DNA of 24,670 nucleotides from positions 1-24,670 of the forward strand of contig PRDI01000016.1 in the NCBI GenBank assembly GCA_003345595.1, read 5' to 3'. The stretch is from Candidatus Thorarchaeota archaeon (GTDB lineage: Archaea; Asgardarchaeota; Thorarchaeia; Thorarchaeales; Thorarchaeaceae). Under the pieces are notes generated by a model. The model searched no databases. It worked only from the letters and a program-made list of their open reading frames with translations, and was not told the DNA's origin. Positions 2,096 to 15,546 of the stretch are shown piece by piece. Made by a program: the position numbers and the translations under genes. The first letter of the stretch is position 1. Every line of letters begins with the position of its first letter.

Positions 2096-4030
2096 TTGCC
2101 GTTCCGCTACAAAGGATATGCTGGGCACTATCTCGAAGTGGATCTCACCAAGGGGAAAGTCAACACAAGAGAGATGCAGGAGGAATGGGCTAGACTCTAT
2201 CTTGGTGGGTCAGGCGTGAGTGCCCGGATACTATGGGAAAGAACGGGGCCGCAGACAGAGCCGTTATCGCCCGACAATGTCCTTGTGGCAGCTACCGGAC
2301 CACTCACTGGAGCAATGTTCTCGCCATCAGGCAGAATGATGTTCGCTTCAAAGAGTCCTCTGACCGGCATATGGGCTGAGAGTCACGTGGGCGGTTTCTT
2401 GGGACCTGAGATGAAATACGCAGGGTTTGACCTGGTCATTCTTCACGGACGGTCACCGAAGCCGGTCTACCTGTTCCTCAATGACGGTAGGGCAGAGCTG
2501 TGCGATGCTACTCAGCTGTGGGGCAGAGAAACTAACGTGGCAGCAACGATGATTCGCGAAGAACACAGGGACCCCTCAACCGAGGTGGCTGTGATAGGAC
2601 CAGCGGGAGAGAATCAGGTACTGTTTGGCAGCATCACAGTAGACTTCTATCGAGCAGCAGGCCGCACTGGACTGGGGGCAGTGATGGGGTCGAAGAACCT
2701 CAAGGCGATAGCCGCGACGGGTTCACTCGCTGTTGAGGCTCATGACATGGACAAGTATCTTCAAGCCAATGAACAAGAGATGGCAAAGCTGAGCGACCCG
2801 CTCTGGACGGAGTCAATAGCCTCGCTGAGGAAGTACGGAACCACCGGTCTCGTGACCATGATTAACGAGATTGGCAGGCTCCCGACGAAGAATCATTGGA
2901 CTGGCTACTACGAGCATGCAGATGACATCGGACCTGAGGCGATCTCGAAGCAGTACAGAATCGCACAGGAGGCCTGCTACGGTTGCGCAATCGGATGCAA
3001 GTACATCTTCCGTGTCAAAGATGGGCCATTCGCCATAGGCCCAGCTGGTGGCTCCGAGTATGAGAGCATCATGGCCTTCGGATCGAACTGCCTGAACAAT
3101 GATCTGGCATCTGTGCTCTACATGGGTACAAGATGTGACCTGCTCGGAATGGACACCATATCCTGTGGTAAGACTATCGGATTCCTAATGGAGCTCTGGG
3201 AGAAAGGAATCCTGACGTCCAAGGACACAGGTGGTCTTGATCTCTCTTGGGGCAACACCGAGTCCATGGCGAAACTCGTGGAGATGGCAGCCAAACGCGA
3301 GGGGATCGGAGAGCTCCTAGCACTTGGCACTAGAAAAGCAGCTGAGAGGATTGGCGGTGATGCTCCGATGTACGCAATCCACTCCAAGGGTCTTGAGGCT
3401 TCAGGACAGGACCCCCGCGCGCACCAGTCCGTGGGGCTGACGTACGCCATAAACGTACGAGGAGCTGACCACCTCAGGAGTCTGTCAAGCCTCGAGGAAC
3501 TGGGTTACCCCGAAGTAATCATCAAGAGATTCGGTAAGGAGAAGTATGAGGAGATCAAGAAGATCACGTCGCCGGTATACAAGGGCGAGGTGATCAAAGA
3601 CATCGAGGATCTGTACGCACTCGTTGACTCAGCCGTGATATGCAAGTATGGCACGATGTGGCCGCCTGTATACTACTTTGAAACTTTCACTAACGTGATT
3701 CCTCCTTTGACAGGCATGGATGAGTGGTCCAGTATGAAGTTCGTGAGGGAAGCGGCCGAGAGAATATGTCACCTTAGAAGGGCCTACAACCACCGTCTAG
3801 GCATCACTCGAAAACAAGAAACCCTTCCCAAGAGGCTCTTGTCCGACCCAATGCCCACGGGACCTGCAAAGGGCGGTCTCCCGGACCTAGACTACATGCT
3901 GGATGAGTACTACACGAAACGCGGATGCGATCTGAAGACAGGATTTCCGAAGAAAGAAACCCTTGTTCGACTCAAGCTGGATGCCGTTGCAGGCGACCTC
4001 GAAAGCCGAGGCTTGTTGGCAAGTAATTGA
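2096..4030 (+). CDS. aor: Aldehyde:ferredoxin oxidoreductase family (W/Mo bis-pterin) large subunit, paralog 1
   Basis: GYAG..L.VDL, KSPLTG, IGPAGEN, GRTGLGAVMGSKNLKA, CYGCAIGC, EYE, GMDTIS, RGADH, DSAVIC and LDEYY..RG motifs. Substrate unknown. Confidence 0.93.
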   Translation: MPFRYKGYAGHYLEVDLTKGKVNTREMQEEWARLYLGGSGVSARILWERTGPQTEPLSPDNVLVAATGPLTGAMFSPSGRMMFASKSPLTGIWAESHVGGFLGPEMKYAGFDLVILHGRSPKPVYLFLNDGRAELCDATQLWGRETNVAATMIREEHRDPSTEVAVIGPAGENQVLFGSITVDFYRAAGRTGLGAVMGSKNLKAIAATGSLAVEAHDMDKYLQANEQEMAKLSDPLWTESIASLRKYGTTGLVTMINEIGRLPTKNHWTGYYEHADDIGPEAISKQYRIAQEACYGCAIGCKYIFRVKDGPFAIGPAGGSEYESIMAFGSNCLNNDLASVLYMGTRCDLLGMDTISCGKTIGFLMELWEKGILTSKDTGGLDLSWGNTESMAKLVEMAAKREGIGELLALGTRKAAERIGGDAPMYAIHSKGLEASGQDPRAHQSVGLTYAINVRGADHLRSLSSLEELGYPEVIIKRFGKEKYEEIKKITSPVYKGEVIKDIEDLYALVDSAVICKYGTMWPPVYYFETFTNVIPPLTGMDEWSSMKFVREAAERICHLRRAYNHRLGITRKQETLPKRLLSDPMPTGPAKGGLPDLDYMLDEYYTKRGCDLKTGFPKKETLVRLKLDAVAGDLESRGLLASN

Positions 4031-9813: not shown

Positions 9814-10305
9814 ATGTCGGCACTCAAGTTCGTCTTTGGAAGCCCCACGGTATGCACAGGATGCATGATCTGTGCTAACGCGTGCAGCATGTTCTACTTC
9901 AAGGTCATTAGTCCTACCCGGGCAAGAGTCCGAGTGATGCGCTTTGAGGATGGGCTCGACTTTCCCCTCTTCTGCCGCAATTGTGAAGACGCACCGTGCA
10001 AAGAGGCCTGCCCCGAGGGAGCGATTTCCAGAACCTCCAAGGGAGTGTTGACTGTAAACAACACTAGATGCAACGGGTGCGGCTCATGTGTGAAAGCATG
10101 CCCCTATGATGCAATCTCAGTTAACCCCGACAGTGGCAAGGCTATCAAATGCATTCAATGTGGTGAATGTGTGAAGAGGTGCCCTGTGGAGGCAATATGG
10201 ATCACGACCCAGAAGGAGCTCGCAGACAAAGACAAGAATGGCAGGTTGCCGCCGCTCTATGACAAGCACAAGGCGGAGCTGTATTCGAGAGGTGAGTTCT
10301 TGTGA
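9814..10305 (+). CDS. Polyferredoxin (4x[4Fe-4S]) subunit of AOR paralog 2
   Basis: CTGCMICANAC, CRNCEDAPC..ACP, CNGCGSCVKACP, KCIQCGECVKRCP; GTGA overlap with the AOR. Confidence 0.92.
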   Translation: MSALKFVFGSPTVCTGCMICANACSMFYFKVISPTRARVRVMRFEDGLDFPLFCRNCEDAPCKEACPEGAISRTSKGVLTVNNTRCNGCGSCVKACPYDAISVNPDSGKAIKCIQCGECVKRCPVEAIWITTQKELADKDKNGRLPPLYDKHKAELYSRGEFL

Positions 10306-12158
10306 TCAAAGGAGTAGGCGGTCAGGGGCTATACATAGATCTGACAAGCCAGAGTATCAAGAAGAAGCCTCTCGATGAGCAGGTCGTCAGGAAGTACCTC
10401 TTGGGTGCAGGGTTCCTGTCAAGGACTCTCTTCGATATGATTCCCGACGGGACGGACCCTCTAGGCCAAGAAAACGTTCTTGGCTTCGCTACCGGGCTCC
10501 TCACAGGTTCTATGTTTCCGCAATCGTCAAGGCATGTCATCGCTGCATTGTCCCCTCTCACTGGGATATGGGGAGAAAGTCACGCCGCGGGATTCTGGGG
10601 ACCGGAACTCAAGCTCGCCGGGTACGACTCGATCATATTCACGGGGGCCGCTCGGAAGCCCGTCTATCTCCGGATCCAGGACTCGACCGTGGAACTCCTC
10701 GATGCATCATCCGTCTGGGGTCATGATGTCTTCGAGACTGACACGATACTCAAAGCCAAACATGGTAGGAACTGCCGGGTCCTCTCCATCGGGCAGGCTG
10801 GAGAGAATCTAGTTCGTTTCGCGGCAGTTATGAATGACAGGGACAGGGCATCAGCCCGTTCGGGCATCGGCGCAGTAATGGGATCAAAGAACCTCAAAGC
10901 GATATGTGTGAGAGGAACAGGCAAGCTCGAAGTTGCAGAGCCACGAACCTACCTTAAGGAGATGGACGAGCTCCACAGGAGAATGTTAGCCAATCCTTTC
11001 ACTCCGGGCCGGGCCGAGTTTGGGACTACCAGCCTAATAGAACTCATGCAGCACATCGGCCGACTGCCTACCTACAATATGCGGCAAGGGGTGTTCGACG
11101 GCTATGACAAGATAGGCGGGCATGCCATCAACCAAGGCCATCTTATAAAACCCAGAGCTGACTGGAGCTGCCTGCAGAGATGCGGCCGCTTCACCTGTGT
11201 GTCAGAGGGGCCGTACGCCTACACAGGAGGGTCTCCCGAGTTCGAGAGCCAAGCGGCCCTCGGGTCGCGTTGCGGAAATGCCAATCTGGAGTCCGTCCTA
11301 TACAGCCATCACTTGGCCAATCAGTATGGGATGGATACGATATCTCTTGGTGGCACGATATCTTGGGCAATGGAAGCCTGGGAGGAGGGGCTCCTCACAG
11401 AAGACGACACCGGTGGTATCGATCTTGGCTGGGGCAACCATGAGTCAATCGTCAAGCTGACCAAGATGATTGCCTTCAGAGAGGGATTTGGTGACCTACT
11501 TGCTGAGGGGAGCGCAAGAGCAGCAGAGAAAATCGGACGCGGAAGCGAGAGGCTCGTCATGGCCGTGAAGAAGCAGGAGATAGCTGGGCAGGAACCCCGT
11601 GCTCAGAAGTCGATGGGGCTCGCCGCGGTCACTGCTGCAAGAGGTGCCGATCATCTCTACGGTTTTCCCGTGTTAGATGAGGTGGGGTTTGACGACGAGA
11701 TCAGAAAACGCTTCGGAGAGCAGTACCTTCCTCAGATGGCGGATAGACTCGATCCCACATACAAAGGCATCATGGTGAAAGAGTGTGAGGACTTCATGGT
11801 GGTCGTTGAGAGCGTTGGCCTTTGTAAGTATGGCACGCAGATTCCTCCCGAGTTCTACTATGCAGATATCGCACTTGGACTGAAGATACACAATGGCCTC
11901 GACATCTCTGTGCAGCAGTTGAAGACTATTGGAGAGCGGATAGTGAACCTCAACCGCTTGTTCAATGCAAGGTTCGGTATCACACGAAAGGACGATGCAT
12001 TGCCGGATAGACTGACGAAGGAGAAGGCACCAGTCGGTCCCTCAAAGGGTCAGGTGGTCGAGCTGGACAGAATGCTCGACGAGTACTACAGTTCTAGGGG
12101 CTGGAATCTGAAGACAGGTTTGCCGCTCAAGAGCACACTGAAGAAACTCGCCCTCTAG
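10302..12158 (+). CDS. aor: Aldehyde:ferredoxin oxidoreductase family large subunit, paralog 2
   Basis: SPLTG, IGQAGEN, RSGIGAVMGSKNLKA, GMDTIS, GDLLAEG, RGADH, LDEYY..RGW. The Fe-S motif reads DWSCLQRC. Confidence 0.92.
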   Translation: MIKGVGGQGLYIDLTSQSIKKKPLDEQVVRKYLLGAGFLSRTLFDMIPDGTDPLGQENVLGFATGLLTGSMFPQSSRHVIAALSPLTGIWGESHAAGFWGPELKLAGYDSIIFTGAARKPVYLRIQDSTVELLDASSVWGHDVFETDTILKAKHGRNCRVLSIGQAGENLVRFAAVMNDRDRASARSGIGAVMGSKNLKAICVRGTGKLEVAEPRTYLKEMDELHRRMLANPFTPGRAEFGTTSLIELMQHIGRLPTYNMRQGVFDGYDKIGGHAINQGHLIKPRADWSCLQRCGRFTCVSEGPYAYTGGSPEFESQAALGSRCGNANLESVLYSHHLANQYGMDTISLGGTISWAMEAWEEGLLTEDDTGGIDLGWGNHESIVKLTKMIAFREGFGDLLAEGSARAAEKIGRGSERLVMAVKKQEIAGQEPRAQKSMGLAAVTAARGADHLYGFPVLDEVGFDDEIRKRFGEQYLPQMADRLDPTYKGIMVKECEDFMVVVESVGLCKYGTQIPPEFYYADIALGLKIHNGLDISVQQLKTIGERIVNLNRLFNARFGITRKDDALPDRLTKEKAPVGPSKGQVVELDRMLDEYYSSRGWNLKTGLPLKSTLKKLAL

Positions 12159-12502: not shown

Positions 12503-12631
12503 TCACCGAATGGTCAGAATCACATTGAAACCGATGGATGCCGATAAACATATTCATCATCGTGAGCATAGACCCGTGAATCTCATAAGTTGACGTACTC
12601 CTCAAACCAAGACCTTTTCTAAGCAGCAATG

Positions 12632-12637
12632 TTTAAA
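12632..12637 (+). promoter_or_regulatory. Putative TATA box of the hydrogenase operon
   Basis: TTTAAA about 45 nt upstream of TTG 12683, within the divergent lrp/mvhD intergenic region. Confidence 0.45.
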
Positions 12638-12682
12638 GAACTGTACAAGTCCCGCCTGAGATGCCAAGGGGTTACGAATGGT

Positions 12683-13150
12683 TTGACAGCCGCAGGTCAG
12701 AAATCGGCCAGCACTCAGAAACCAAAGACAAAGGTAGAAGACAGATTCGAGCCCCGCATACTGGCCTTCTGCTGCAACTGGTGTTCATATGCCGGCGCAG
12801 ACCTTGCAGGCACTAGCAGAATGCAGATGCCTCCGAATATGCGAATCATCAGGGTCAACTGCACCGGACGCATAGACCCCGTCTTTGTCCTTGAAGCACT
12901 CAACCAAGGTGCAGACGGTGTGCTCATCTCAGGCTGTCACCCAGGGGACTGCCACTATACAACCGGGAATCTGAAGATGAAGTCACGCTTCGCCCTTCTC
13001 CAGAAGATGCTTGAGGAAGCAGGCATCGAGCCAGAGAGAGTCCATCTTCAGTGGGCGAGCGCAGCAGAGGGCGACGTCTTTACCCAAGGCATCACATCCA
13101 TGGTGGAGCGGATCAAAGCTCTGGGGCCGAACCCCGTAAAGAAGGACTAA
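12683..13150 (+). CDS. mvhD: F420-non-reducing hydrogenase [2Fe-2S] subunit D (all-Cys form)
   Basis: FCCNWCSYAGADLAG, RVNCTGRID, GADGV...GCHPGDCHY..GN, WASAAEG, LGPNP. TTG 12683 preferred over ATG 12629, which overlaps the TATA box. Confidence 0.93.
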   Translation: MTAAGQKSASTQKPKTKVEDRFEPRILAFCCNWCSYAGADLAGTSRMQMPPNMRIIRVNCTGRIDPVFVLEALNQGADGVLISGCHPGDCHYTTGNLKMKSRFALLQKMLEEAGIEPERVHLQWASAAEGDVFTQGITSMVERIKALGPNPVKKD

Positions 13151-13156
13151 TGAGAG

Positions 13157-14071
13157 ATGACCAAACGCATTGCGCTGGCCCAACTGACCTCCTGCTGGGG
13201 CTGCGATCAGTCACTGGTTGATCTACATCTTGGACTACTGACTGTCCTGCCCGAGATAGAGATAGTATTCTGGCCTGCCGTCGTCGACTTCAAGCTGAAG
13301 GACCTTGAGTCAATGCCGGACCAGTCAATCCACATTGGGCTTGTTGAGGGAAGCTGCAGGACTGAGGAGGACGTCCACCTGCTCAATGTCATGAGAGAGA
13401 AGAGCAAGACCCTTGTCGCATGGGGGGTCTGTTCATGTTATGGGGGTATTCAGGGTCTCGCGAACCAGTGGAACCTCGAGGAGCTGGTCGACAGGAAGTT
13501 CATGAAGGCCGACACGGTCACCGACCCACGAGTACCCTCTGAGAACGTTCCAGTCTTTACAGAAACCGTACAGCCAAACGTCGACATCGTGGAATTCGAT
13601 GTCTAGTTGCCCGGGTGCCCTCCAACCAGCAAGAACTTGCTCGACGCACTCACAGCTCTCATCTCTGGAAAGCCCTTTGACCTTCCTGAGAAGAGCGTAT
13701 GTGATCAGTGTAGTAAGGTGAAACAGGACAAACACATCAAGGAGTTCCACAGAACTCATGAAGGGCACATCGACCCCAGCAAATGCCTTCTAGACCAGGG
13801 GTACCTGTGTCTAGGCTTCGCAACAATCGGGCTATGCGGGGCCATCTGTCCAAATGTGAACACACCATGTAAGGGATGCTTTGGACCTGTTATCAGGGTC
13901 CGTGACCATGGTGCTAAGATCATCTCAGCACTGGGTGCTGTTGCTGAGATGGAGCCTGACAAATTGAGAGAGTCATTCCCGGATCCGATTGGGTCATTCT
14001 ACTTCACCGACTACGCGGCCTCTTACCTCTCGAGAATTCGCGCGGAAACGAGGAGGAAGAAGAAGAAATGA
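13157..14071 (+). CDS. vhuG: F420-non-reducing hydrogenase small subunit G, interrupted by one in-frame TAG at 13604-13606 (codon 150 of 304)
   Basis: The two track ORFs share a frame and join as ...VEFDV*LPGCPP... Motifs SCWGC, EG, G.CSCYGGI.GLAN, PGCPP, VCDQC, CLL.QG..CLG, CGA.CP..N.PC.GC.GP are all intact. Could alternatively be a pseudogene or a base-call error. Confidence 0.85.
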
Positions 14072-15381
14072 CGGGCGAGAAGACTGTCAAGATATCGCCC
14101 GTGACCAGACTTGAGGGCCATGGCGATATCACCATCAAACTAGGCAAGGATGGAAAGGTGAAGGACGCCCAGTTCAATATCACTTCTACCCGGTTCTTCG
14201 AGAAGTTCCTTGAGGGCAGGTTTGCCGAGGAAGCACCAAGGTTTGCTCCAAGGATATGCGGTATCTGTCCCGAGCCTCACCATTTGGCTTCCGTGAAGGC
14301 TGTGGAGGATGCATGGGGCATCACTCCACCTGCTGCGGCTGTGAAGGTGAGAAGGCTTCTAATCAATGCCAAACAGCTGAGCAGTCATGCGCTTCATTTC
14401 TTTGCTCTTGCGGCTCCGGACTTCTTAGTCGGGCCTTTTGCAGAGCCTGCAAAGAGGAATCTAGTCACCATAGTCAAGGCCATGCCTGATGTTGGCAAGA
14501 TGGCTCTCCAGATGATGCAGTTTGGCCAAGAACTGGCTGCGGCGATTGGTGGAACTGCCATTCACCCTGTGACTGCCATTCCCGGGGGCATGTTGAATCC
14601 GTTCTCAGAAGAGAACAGGGACAAGTTCCTGAAACAGATAGCAGACATCAGGCAGTGGACCGCTGATACACTCACACTAGCAAAGAAGGTCTTCGATGAC
14701 TATTGGGACACCATCACCAAGCTCGGAGTGGTCCAGACGTATTATATCGGGACTCACAACAACGGGGCTCACGAGATATATGATGGCAGTATCAGAGTGA
14801 TGGATCCTGAAGGCAGCGTTGTGGCCGACATCAAGCCGAAGGACTACCGCAAGTGCTTCGCCGAGTATGTGCCTGAACACTCCTATGCCACGCATGTGTA
14901 CTACAAACCAGTGGGATACCCAGACGGAGTCTGGCGGGCGGGCACTCTTGCACGGACCAACGTTGTAGACAAGATGGCTACACCTCTGGCTCAAGAGGCA
15001 TTTGAAGAGATGAGAAACAGACTCGGCCATCCCATTCACGCAACATTCGCATATCATTGGGCCCGGATCGTGGAACTTGTCCAAGCGATGGAGGAGCTCG
15101 AGATCCTGTTGAAGGACCCTCAGATTGTGAGCAAGGACATCAAGTTGTCAGTGGTCCAGCCGAAGAAGGGTGATGGTGTAGGATGTGTTGAAGCACCGCG
15201 AGGAACACTCATCCATCATTACTGGACTGACGAACAAGGGATCATCACAAAGGCAAACATGATAGTCGCCACAAACAACAATGTCGGCGGCATCGAGAAG
15301 ACTCTGATGGAAGTAGCCAAGCAGGTCTTCGAACAAAGGGCTCACCAGAAACTGAAATTGCCTAAACCTATGATAGGCTAG
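14068..15381 (+). CDS. vhuA: [NiFe(Se)] hydrogenase group 3c large subunit lacking the C-terminal L2 motif (VhuA-type)
   Basis: TRLEGHG, RFFEKFLEGR, L1 motif RICGICPEPH, HALHF, EAPRGTLIHHY, VAT.NN; ends KPMIG* without DPCxxC. ATGA overlap with vhuG. Confidence 0.93.
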   Translation: MTGEKTVKISPVTRLEGHGDITIKLGKDGKVKDAQFNITSTRFFEKFLEGRFAEEAPRFAPRICGICPEPHHLASVKAVEDAWGITPPAAAVKVRRLLINAKQLSSHALHFFALAAPDFLVGPFAEPAKRNLVTIVKAMPDVGKMALQMMQFGQELAAAIGGTAIHPVTAIPGGMLNPFSEENRDKFLKQIADIRQWTADTLTLAKKVFDDYWDTITKLGVVQTYYIGTHNNGAHEIYDGSIRVMDPEGSVVADIKPKDYRKCFAEYVPEHSYATHVYYKPVGYPDGVWRAGTLARTNVVDKMATPLAQEAFEEMRNRLGHPIHATFAYHWARIVELVQAMEELEILLKDPQIVSKDIKLSVVQPKKGDGVGCVEAPRGTLIHHYWTDEQGIITKANMIVATNNNVGGIEKTLMEVAKQVFEQRAHQKLKLPKPMIG

Positions 15382-15393
15382 GAGAGAACTAAG

Positions 15394-15546
15394 ATGACAG
15401 ACGAAATACCTGAAGGCGTACTGAACCTCCTTGAGATGGTAGTACGCTGCTACGACTGCTGACTCTCTTGCGCCGCTCACATCGTCATTGTGGACGAAGA
15501 GGGGCGCGAGATAGCAAGGAGAGAGCTCGTGACCAGCAGCGAATGA
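15394..15546 (+). CDS. vhuU: VhuU selenopeptide (50 aa; Sec from TGA 15460-15462) carrying the hydrogenase L2 Ni-ligand motif
   Basis: Not in the ORF track. MTDEIPEGVLNLLEMVVRCYDC[U]LSCAAHIVIVDEEGREIARRELVTSSE*. The TGA sits at the Ni-ligating Cys/Sec position; SD-like GGAG at 15381-15384; supplies the motif missing from vhuA. Confidence 0.92.

Follow-up and report, generated by a model that had tools for sequence, protein, structure and literature searches.

The closest described system for the gene analyzed here is the F420-non-reducing (methyl-viologen-reducing) [NiFe]/[NiFeSe] hydrogenase, whose MvhG/VhuG subunit has been solved in 5ODC (chain E), 9SFI (chain I), and 9SW2 (chain E). The vhu operons of Methanococcus have the gene order mvhD-G-A followed by a separate vhuU that contains selenocysteine (Sec), and this is also the gene order in the window, which is the whole stretch of 24,670 nt that we analyzed. 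In this arrangement the large subunit is split between VhuA and VhuU. Relatives share this split, and VhuU starts from an ATG of its own. Two other known systems are relevant for a gene interrupted by a stop codon. One is the decoding of UAG as pyrrolysine (Pyl) by the pylTSBCD system, which occurs in Methanosarcina and Sifarchaeia. The other is the class of strain-private nonsense mutations, pseudogenes, and consensus errors of metagenome-assembled genomes (MAGs), in which a single stop is found in an otherwise conserved gene.

The window is contig C16 of genome G000, a 2.73-Mb assembly in 129 contigs that is 83% complete and whose neighbors in the databases carry the label Candidatus Thorarchaeota. 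A hydrogenase operon made up of mvhD/vhuD, vhuG, vhuA, and vhuU occupies positions 12629-15546 of the plus strand. Its parts are as follows.

12629 to 13150, plus strand: mvhD/vhuD-like delta subunit, the first gene of the operon (Pfam FlpD, PF02662; E 8e-56)
13157 to 14071, plus strand: vhuG, whole frame (Pfam Oxidored_q6, PF01058)
13157 to 13603, plus strand: N-terminal part of vhuG, 149 codons (Oxidored_q6; coding score)
13604 to 13606, plus strand: in-frame TAG of vhuG (read from the sequence; found in this assembly alone)
13607 to 14071, plus strand: C-terminal part of vhuG, 154 codons from TTG (PGCPP Cys and the remaining conserved Cys)
14068 to 15381, plus strand: vhuA, large subunit of the [NiFe(Se)] hydrogenase, lacking the C-terminal segment (Pfam NiFeSe_Hases)
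15394 to 15546, plus strand: vhuU, small C-terminal piece of the large subunit, 50 codons (Sec TGA at 15460-15462, in YDC-U-LSCAAH)

The closest solved relatives of the window's VhuG are the MvhG chains 9sfi_I and 5odc_E. The match is full-length and collinear over residues 4-286 (E 1e-66 to 2e-68) with all conserved Cys present, and vhuG has mvhD and the large-subunit gene as its neighbors, as befits a member of the MvhG/VhuG family. The locus differs from the solved systems in three respects: the host is a non-methanogenic archaeon of the Thorarchaeota type within the Asgard archaea, no hdr genes adjoin the hydrogenase operon in the window, and vhuG has a premature TAG at codon 150. From the ATG at 13157 to the TGA at 14069-14071, TAG 13604-13606 is the sole in-frame stop, and a TTG directly follows it. 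The uninterrupted frame of about 300 amino acids that marks the family is thus broken in this copy.

The read-through product is 304 aa long and reads VEFDV*LPGCPP at the stop. A single Oxidored_q6 domain (residues 13-168) spans the TAG and scores 78.7 bits against a gathering cut-off of 27. The N-terminal half alone scores 57 bits, and the C-terminal half alone has no Pfam match. Both halves have strong in-frame coding scores, that of the N-terminal part being 0.35 in frame versus -0.7 to -0.8 out of frame. Twelve Cys (C13, C16, C92, C154, C182, C185, C210, C218, C227, C231, C238, and C241) are present, all in columns that are invariant in alignments of 84 and 48 sequences, and the conserved ligands include the CxxC, GxCxxxGG, and PGCPP motifs. 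The proximal cluster has four Cys, and three of them (C13, C16, and C92) lie in the N-terminal part. In an AlphaFold2 model of VhuG (mean pLDDT 70; about 86-90 around residue 150), residue 150 falls in a predicted beta-strand, 149-151, that leads into the PGCPP ligand loop. The original prediction had described vhuG as split by this TAG alone, with both halves in frame, the Fe-S Cys motifs retained, and a normal joined length of 304 aa. All of this is borne out, the orthologues being 301-305 aa long.

The other genes of the operon are intact, as had also been supposed. The mvhD/vhuD-like gene is 95% identical to its orthologue in the sister genome G001, and vhuA, which ends in TAG 15379-15381, encodes 437 aa here and in G001 alike. 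The vhuA ATG overlaps the TGA of vhuG (14069-14071), and a GGAGG motif lies 13-18 nt upstream of it. Over 14.5 kb, 11 other genes common to the window and G001 are collinear and free of frameshifts and stops, and their lengths are equal or differ with the start call. Therefore, the assembly is not generally error-prone or degraded. The vhuU ATG lies four codons after the vhuA TAG in the same frame (15379-15396), and reading through that TAG would restore an unsplit large subunit. The vhuA stop of G001 is likewise TAG. In a paralogous operon on contig C125 (see below) the vhuU frame differs from that of vhuA, so nothing suggests that readthrough of the vhuA TAG is used. Elsewhere in the window, two aldehyde:ferredoxin oxidoreductase (AOR) paralogues are located at 2096-4030 and 10302-12158, and between them, just upstream of the hydrogenase operon, are genes for an amidohydrolase and a 2x[4Fe-4S] ferredoxin. 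An Rfam scan of the whole window at the gathering threshold gave no match.

The vhuG stop is not shared with relatives. All 15 vhuG orthologues found in 40 relatives and about 80 database orthologues are uninterrupted at 301-305 aa. Within the same genus, codon 150 is ATG in G001, G003, and two metagenome loci (L084 and L085) and TTG in G002, and the other orthologues have Ile, Val, Leu, or Met at this position. At the nucleotide level, vhuG of G001 is 90% identical to that of the window, and the two metagenome contigs are 91% identical. Among 83 homologues, column 150 is a variable hydrophobic position (I25, V17, L14, Y10, M6, A3, R3, S2, F2, P1) at which Lys never occurs. The idea that sister genomes might keep the TAG, or have Lys or Tyr in its place, did not survive the alignment, which gave Met and Leu codons and no stop.

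A still closer comparison is provided by P0130, a 304-aa VhuG from an independent assembly (JGI/IMG and ENA) that is encoded on a 24,141-nt contig. P0130 is 99% identical to the read-through product of the window, with two differences, Leu at 150 and A296T, and it falls in a 90%-identity cluster with the G001 protein and the two half-proteins of the window. The neighboring proteins on its contig are equally close to those of the window (VhuA 99.8%, AOR 99.7%, amidohydrolase 100% identical). Since P0130 reads Leu, the stop arose or was introduced after the split from this approximately 99.7%-identical strain. A metagenome scan with P0130, from which the records closest to this genome may have been excluded, returned 11 loci, and P0130's own contig is not among them.

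The deposited half-proteins, one of 149 aa and one of 154 aa that begins MPGCPP, are on record from this 24,670-nt contig only, by way of the NCBI deposit only. VhuA and AOR proteins identical to those of the window are also in ENA, and the sole ENA VhuG with at least 99% identity is the intact P0130. This is a hint that a second assembly of the same strain has an intact vhuG, the sources being listed per protein, not per contig. Between G000 and G001, vhuG differs by 66 synonymous and 18 non-synonymous codon changes, with 43 nucleotide differences upstream of the TAG and 45 downstream. Both halves were thus under equal purifying selection until recently, and the gene was functional until then.

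We conclude that the TAG of vhuG very probably reflects a single, isolated change of a Leu codon found in this MAG alone, either a very recent nonsense mutation in the sequenced population or a consensus or assembly error. Between these two, we lean slightly toward a real mutation. Such a change was one of three options in the original prediction, and it is the one that agrees with a private TAG and a 99%-identical protein that reads Leu. The stop resembles other strain-private stops in that neither a 99.7%-identical strain nor any relative has it, its flanks are under purifying selection, and a paralogue is available; nothing sets it apart from that class. Judging from the Leu of P0130, the ancestral codon was most likely TTG, one transversion from TAG, because no other Leu codon is a single step away from TAG and G002 uses TTG at this site. 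AAG, TAC, and TTG had been put forward as the ancestor; Leu and Met in the relatives point to TTG.

A second explanation, which we regard as unlikely, is that VhuG is a genuinely split subunit, in which UAG terminates translation, re-initiation occurs at the adjacent UUG, and the 149-aa and 154-aa halves assemble with the PGCPP Cys supplied in trans. The TTG that directly follows the TAG is what this mechanism needs, both halves keep full coding character, and the depositors' annotation gives two proteins. There are also 27 same-frame junctions in this genome at which a stop directly abuts a start, so a restart after UAG is conceivable, and the TAG-CTG junction at which thiL meets a radical-SAM gene, being conserved, suggests that near-cognate restart occurs in this lineage. 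A split VhuG would be similar to the VhuA/VhuU pair in that a second polypeptide would supply a metal-ligand Cys. In contrast to that pair, however, the VhuG break is private, has no Shine-Dalgarno (SD) signal, and cuts a beta-strand. The junction is absent from every relative and even from the 99.7%-identical strain, which has Leu there. SD pairing at the junction is -3.6 kcal/mol, which is background (median of random positions, -3.4), whereas the same-frame abutting junctions of the genome have a median of -10 kcal/mol. At 36 of 54 junctions, defined as genes whose start lies 0-1 codons past an upstream in-frame stop, pairing is -8.7 kcal/mol or stronger. The anti-SD sequence used for these energies is one that we assumed from general knowledge, and the assumption is supported by the enrichment of pairing at real junctions. 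Moreover, the break is predicted to fall within strand 149-151 of the flavodoxin-like domain and not in a linker, and residue 150 would be lost.

When each half was compared with 5.8 billion protein clusters, only contig-end fragments were recovered, and no protein in these clusters ends or starts at the break site. The junction therefore looks like an accident rather than an evolved gene boundary. Of the split proposed in the original prediction, the abutment of TAG and TTG and the conceivability of a restart stand; an SD signal and a split homologue are missing. A narrower version is that the TAG is real and tolerated via UUG restart, with a VhuG in two pieces that both supply Cys ligands to the proximal [4Fe-4S] cluster, i.e., a split newborn within the population. 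We consider this version a little more doubtful still.

Two further observations concern gene junctions in this genome. About two-thirds of the 54 junction genes are preceded by a GGAGG/GGTGA-like motif inside the last codons of the upstream gene; as a rule, operon-internal genes of this Asgard archaeon thus seem to be coupled through Shine-Dalgarno sequences. The second concerns thiL, which ends in TAG 14380-14382 on the minus strand of contig C106 (L055; also L095-L098). Next in the same frame comes a radical-SAM gene whose first codon is CTG, and there is no ATG, GTG, or TTG for 62 codons. The junction, ...GGGAGTGGAGT TAG CTG..., is kept in G000, G001, G002, and G004, and G003 has GAG in place of the TAG, which results in a single fused frame of 912 codons. 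This points to either termination-coupled CUG initiation or a conserved site of readthrough or fusion.

The last explanation, programmed decoding of the UAG by Pyl, another suppressor, or readthrough to give a full-length VhuG in a Sec-using operon, is close to refuted, and we give it hardly any credence. The frame past the TAG is open and conserved, and an in-frame UAG in a gene that otherwise looks intact is the one feature shared with Pyl-decoded genes. However, the vhuG site is not conserved, the gene is not a methylamine methyltransferase gene, and every relative, the 99%-identical protein included, has a sense codon there. The residue itself is a variable hydrophobic strand residue that is never Lys. 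Nor is UAG reserved for a special use: it is an ordinary stop in this genome, as the original prediction had noted in calling TAG a common stop. TAG ends 481 of the 1122 stop-to-stop frames of at least 300 codons (43%), a frequency that sets the genome apart from known Pyl users, although Sifarchaeia carry the Pyl system despite high UAG stop usage (PMC9723677).

We also counted the sites at which a single in-frame stop is flanked on both sides by coding-like sequence of at least 80 codons. These same-frame junctions number 71 for TGA, 64 for TAG, and 18 for TAA, in proportion to stop usage. We examined the 30 most suspicious TAG junctions, of which 10 have no start codon for at least 14 codons past the stop and 20 have a near start with a weak Shine-Dalgarno sequence. 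In none of the 30 does a Pfam domain cross the TAG, and the domains found belong to different families on the two sides. The vhuG gene is the only case found with a domain across the stop, and the count of other genes with a single internal TAG, which had been proposed as a check, came to none among these 30. An MFS_1 half-match upstream of a TAG on contig C100 was considered as a second interrupted gene and rejected; its score is below the cut-off, and nothing matches downstream.

The machinery for Pyl decoding was sought as well. Profile models for PylS, PylB, PylC, and PylD (TIGR02367, TIGR03910, TIGR03909, and TIGR03911) gave no match over the cut-off in the 83%-complete G000. Because this genome is incomplete, 31 genomes of the family, many of them 95-99% complete, were also searched, and neither PylS nor PylD exceeded the cut-off in any of them. 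This agrees with a published survey reporting that Sifarchaeia are the only Asgard archaea with the Pyl system and that Thorarchaeia are without a pyl cluster (PMC9723677). Among the tRNAs detected in G000 by ARAGORN and Rfam RF00005 (about 25, an incomplete inventory, most of them with introns), none has a CUA anticodon, and ARAGORN run without introns also gave no CUA tRNA. At 83% completeness and with about 25 tRNAs, the inventory may have missed a suppressor tRNA of G000 itself. The search for pylTSBCD and tRNA-CUA thus spoke against UAG recoding, the first option of the original prediction. Together with sense codons in all close relatives and with no other gene found to have an internal TAG, this is the combination that the original prediction had itself named as refuting that option.

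One tRNA gene seemed at first sight to say otherwise. When introns are allowed, ARAGORN labels the gene at C106:12486-12593 (L025:287-394) as tRNA-Pyl(cta). We rejected this call as an artefact, the gene being really tRNA-Arg(UCU). The Rfam model builds the anticodon stem from CUAGC and GCUAG, which gives the anticodon UCU, and the intronless orthologues in three genomes of the family read CTTCTAA (Arg, UCU). The gene carries an intron of 30 nt at 37/38 and, unusually, C33, and all four genomes of the genus keep it. Elongator tRNAs seldom have C33. A candidate tRNA-Gly(UCC) at C30:838-905 seems to have C33 too, in the loop CCTCCAA behind a perfect CAAGC/GCTTG stem. Two calls made by ARAGORN without introns, 'ctat' and 'ttga', were likewise discarded, as they are the intron-containing tRNA-Arg(CCU) and tRNA-Gln(UUG). 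ARAGORN is the program used by Prokka. A 'remnant tRNApyl' has been described in Thorarchaeia and Lokiarchaeia using Prokka (PMC9723677), and these published calls may be the same ARAGORN intron artefact.

A hairpin can also be drawn just past the vhuG TAG. It folds at -17.8 kcal/mol, compared with -13.3 ± 2.7 for shuffled sequences (z -1.68), and 14 of 200 shuffles fold as well. The hairpin falls in the codons of the invariant PGCPPTSKN motif. Since it is not better than shuffles and its sequence is constrained by the motif, it is no evidence for a readthrough element.

Unlike the TAG of vhuG, the in-frame TGA of vhuU has the marks of recoding, and the view that this operon recodes UGA was upheld. 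TGA 15460-15462 is kept in nine relatives (among them G001, G002, G003, G004, G019, G024, G009, and G010) and in one metagenome contig, wherever vhuU is in reach. SepSecS (427 bits) is encoded in the genome, as is a SelD whose gene has an in-frame TGA. No match to Rfam RF01852 for tRNA-Sec was found in G000, which we attribute to gaps in the assembly or to divergence of the gene. In addition, the genome has a second complete vhuD-G-A-U operon at C125:13325-17500 (L004). Its VhuG is intact and 53% identical to that of the window, its vhuA is intact, and its VhuU, with the Sec TGA, is nearly identical to the window's. Both paralogous vhu operons are present in most genomes of the family.

Returning to a stop that is private to this MAG, the consequences depend on whether the mutation is real. 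If it is, translation would end after residue 149. Of the conserved Cys, the N-terminal half would have only three of the four that ligate the proximal cluster, and all the others would be missing from it, and this Vhu copy would lose the small subunit that carries the electron-transfer Fe-S clusters. From the architecture of the family, a hydrogenase copy so truncated would be inactive, because the N-terminal half is without the remaining conserved Cys. Some C-terminal half may still be made from the adjacent TTG. The intact vhuD-G-A-U operon on C125 could cover the function, and the loss of one vhu copy could be tolerable, since that operon is intact and relatives keep both.

The case of vhuG is thus an ordinary one, a private stop in one copy of a duplicated and otherwise typical Sec-type Vhu operon. 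Recoding, if true, would have meant that Sec and Pyl occur together in a hydrogenase for the first time and that Thorarchaeota use Pyl, also a first; it is not true. For annotation, ARAGORN with introns, and hence Prokka, mislabels the tRNA-Arg(UCU) of this genus as tRNA-Pyl. More generally, a lone in-frame TAG in a gene of a MAG counts as evidence of recoding only if relatives share it and the decoding machinery is present as well. In the same operon, the conserved Sec TGA of vhuU serves as an internal control for what genuine recoding looks like.
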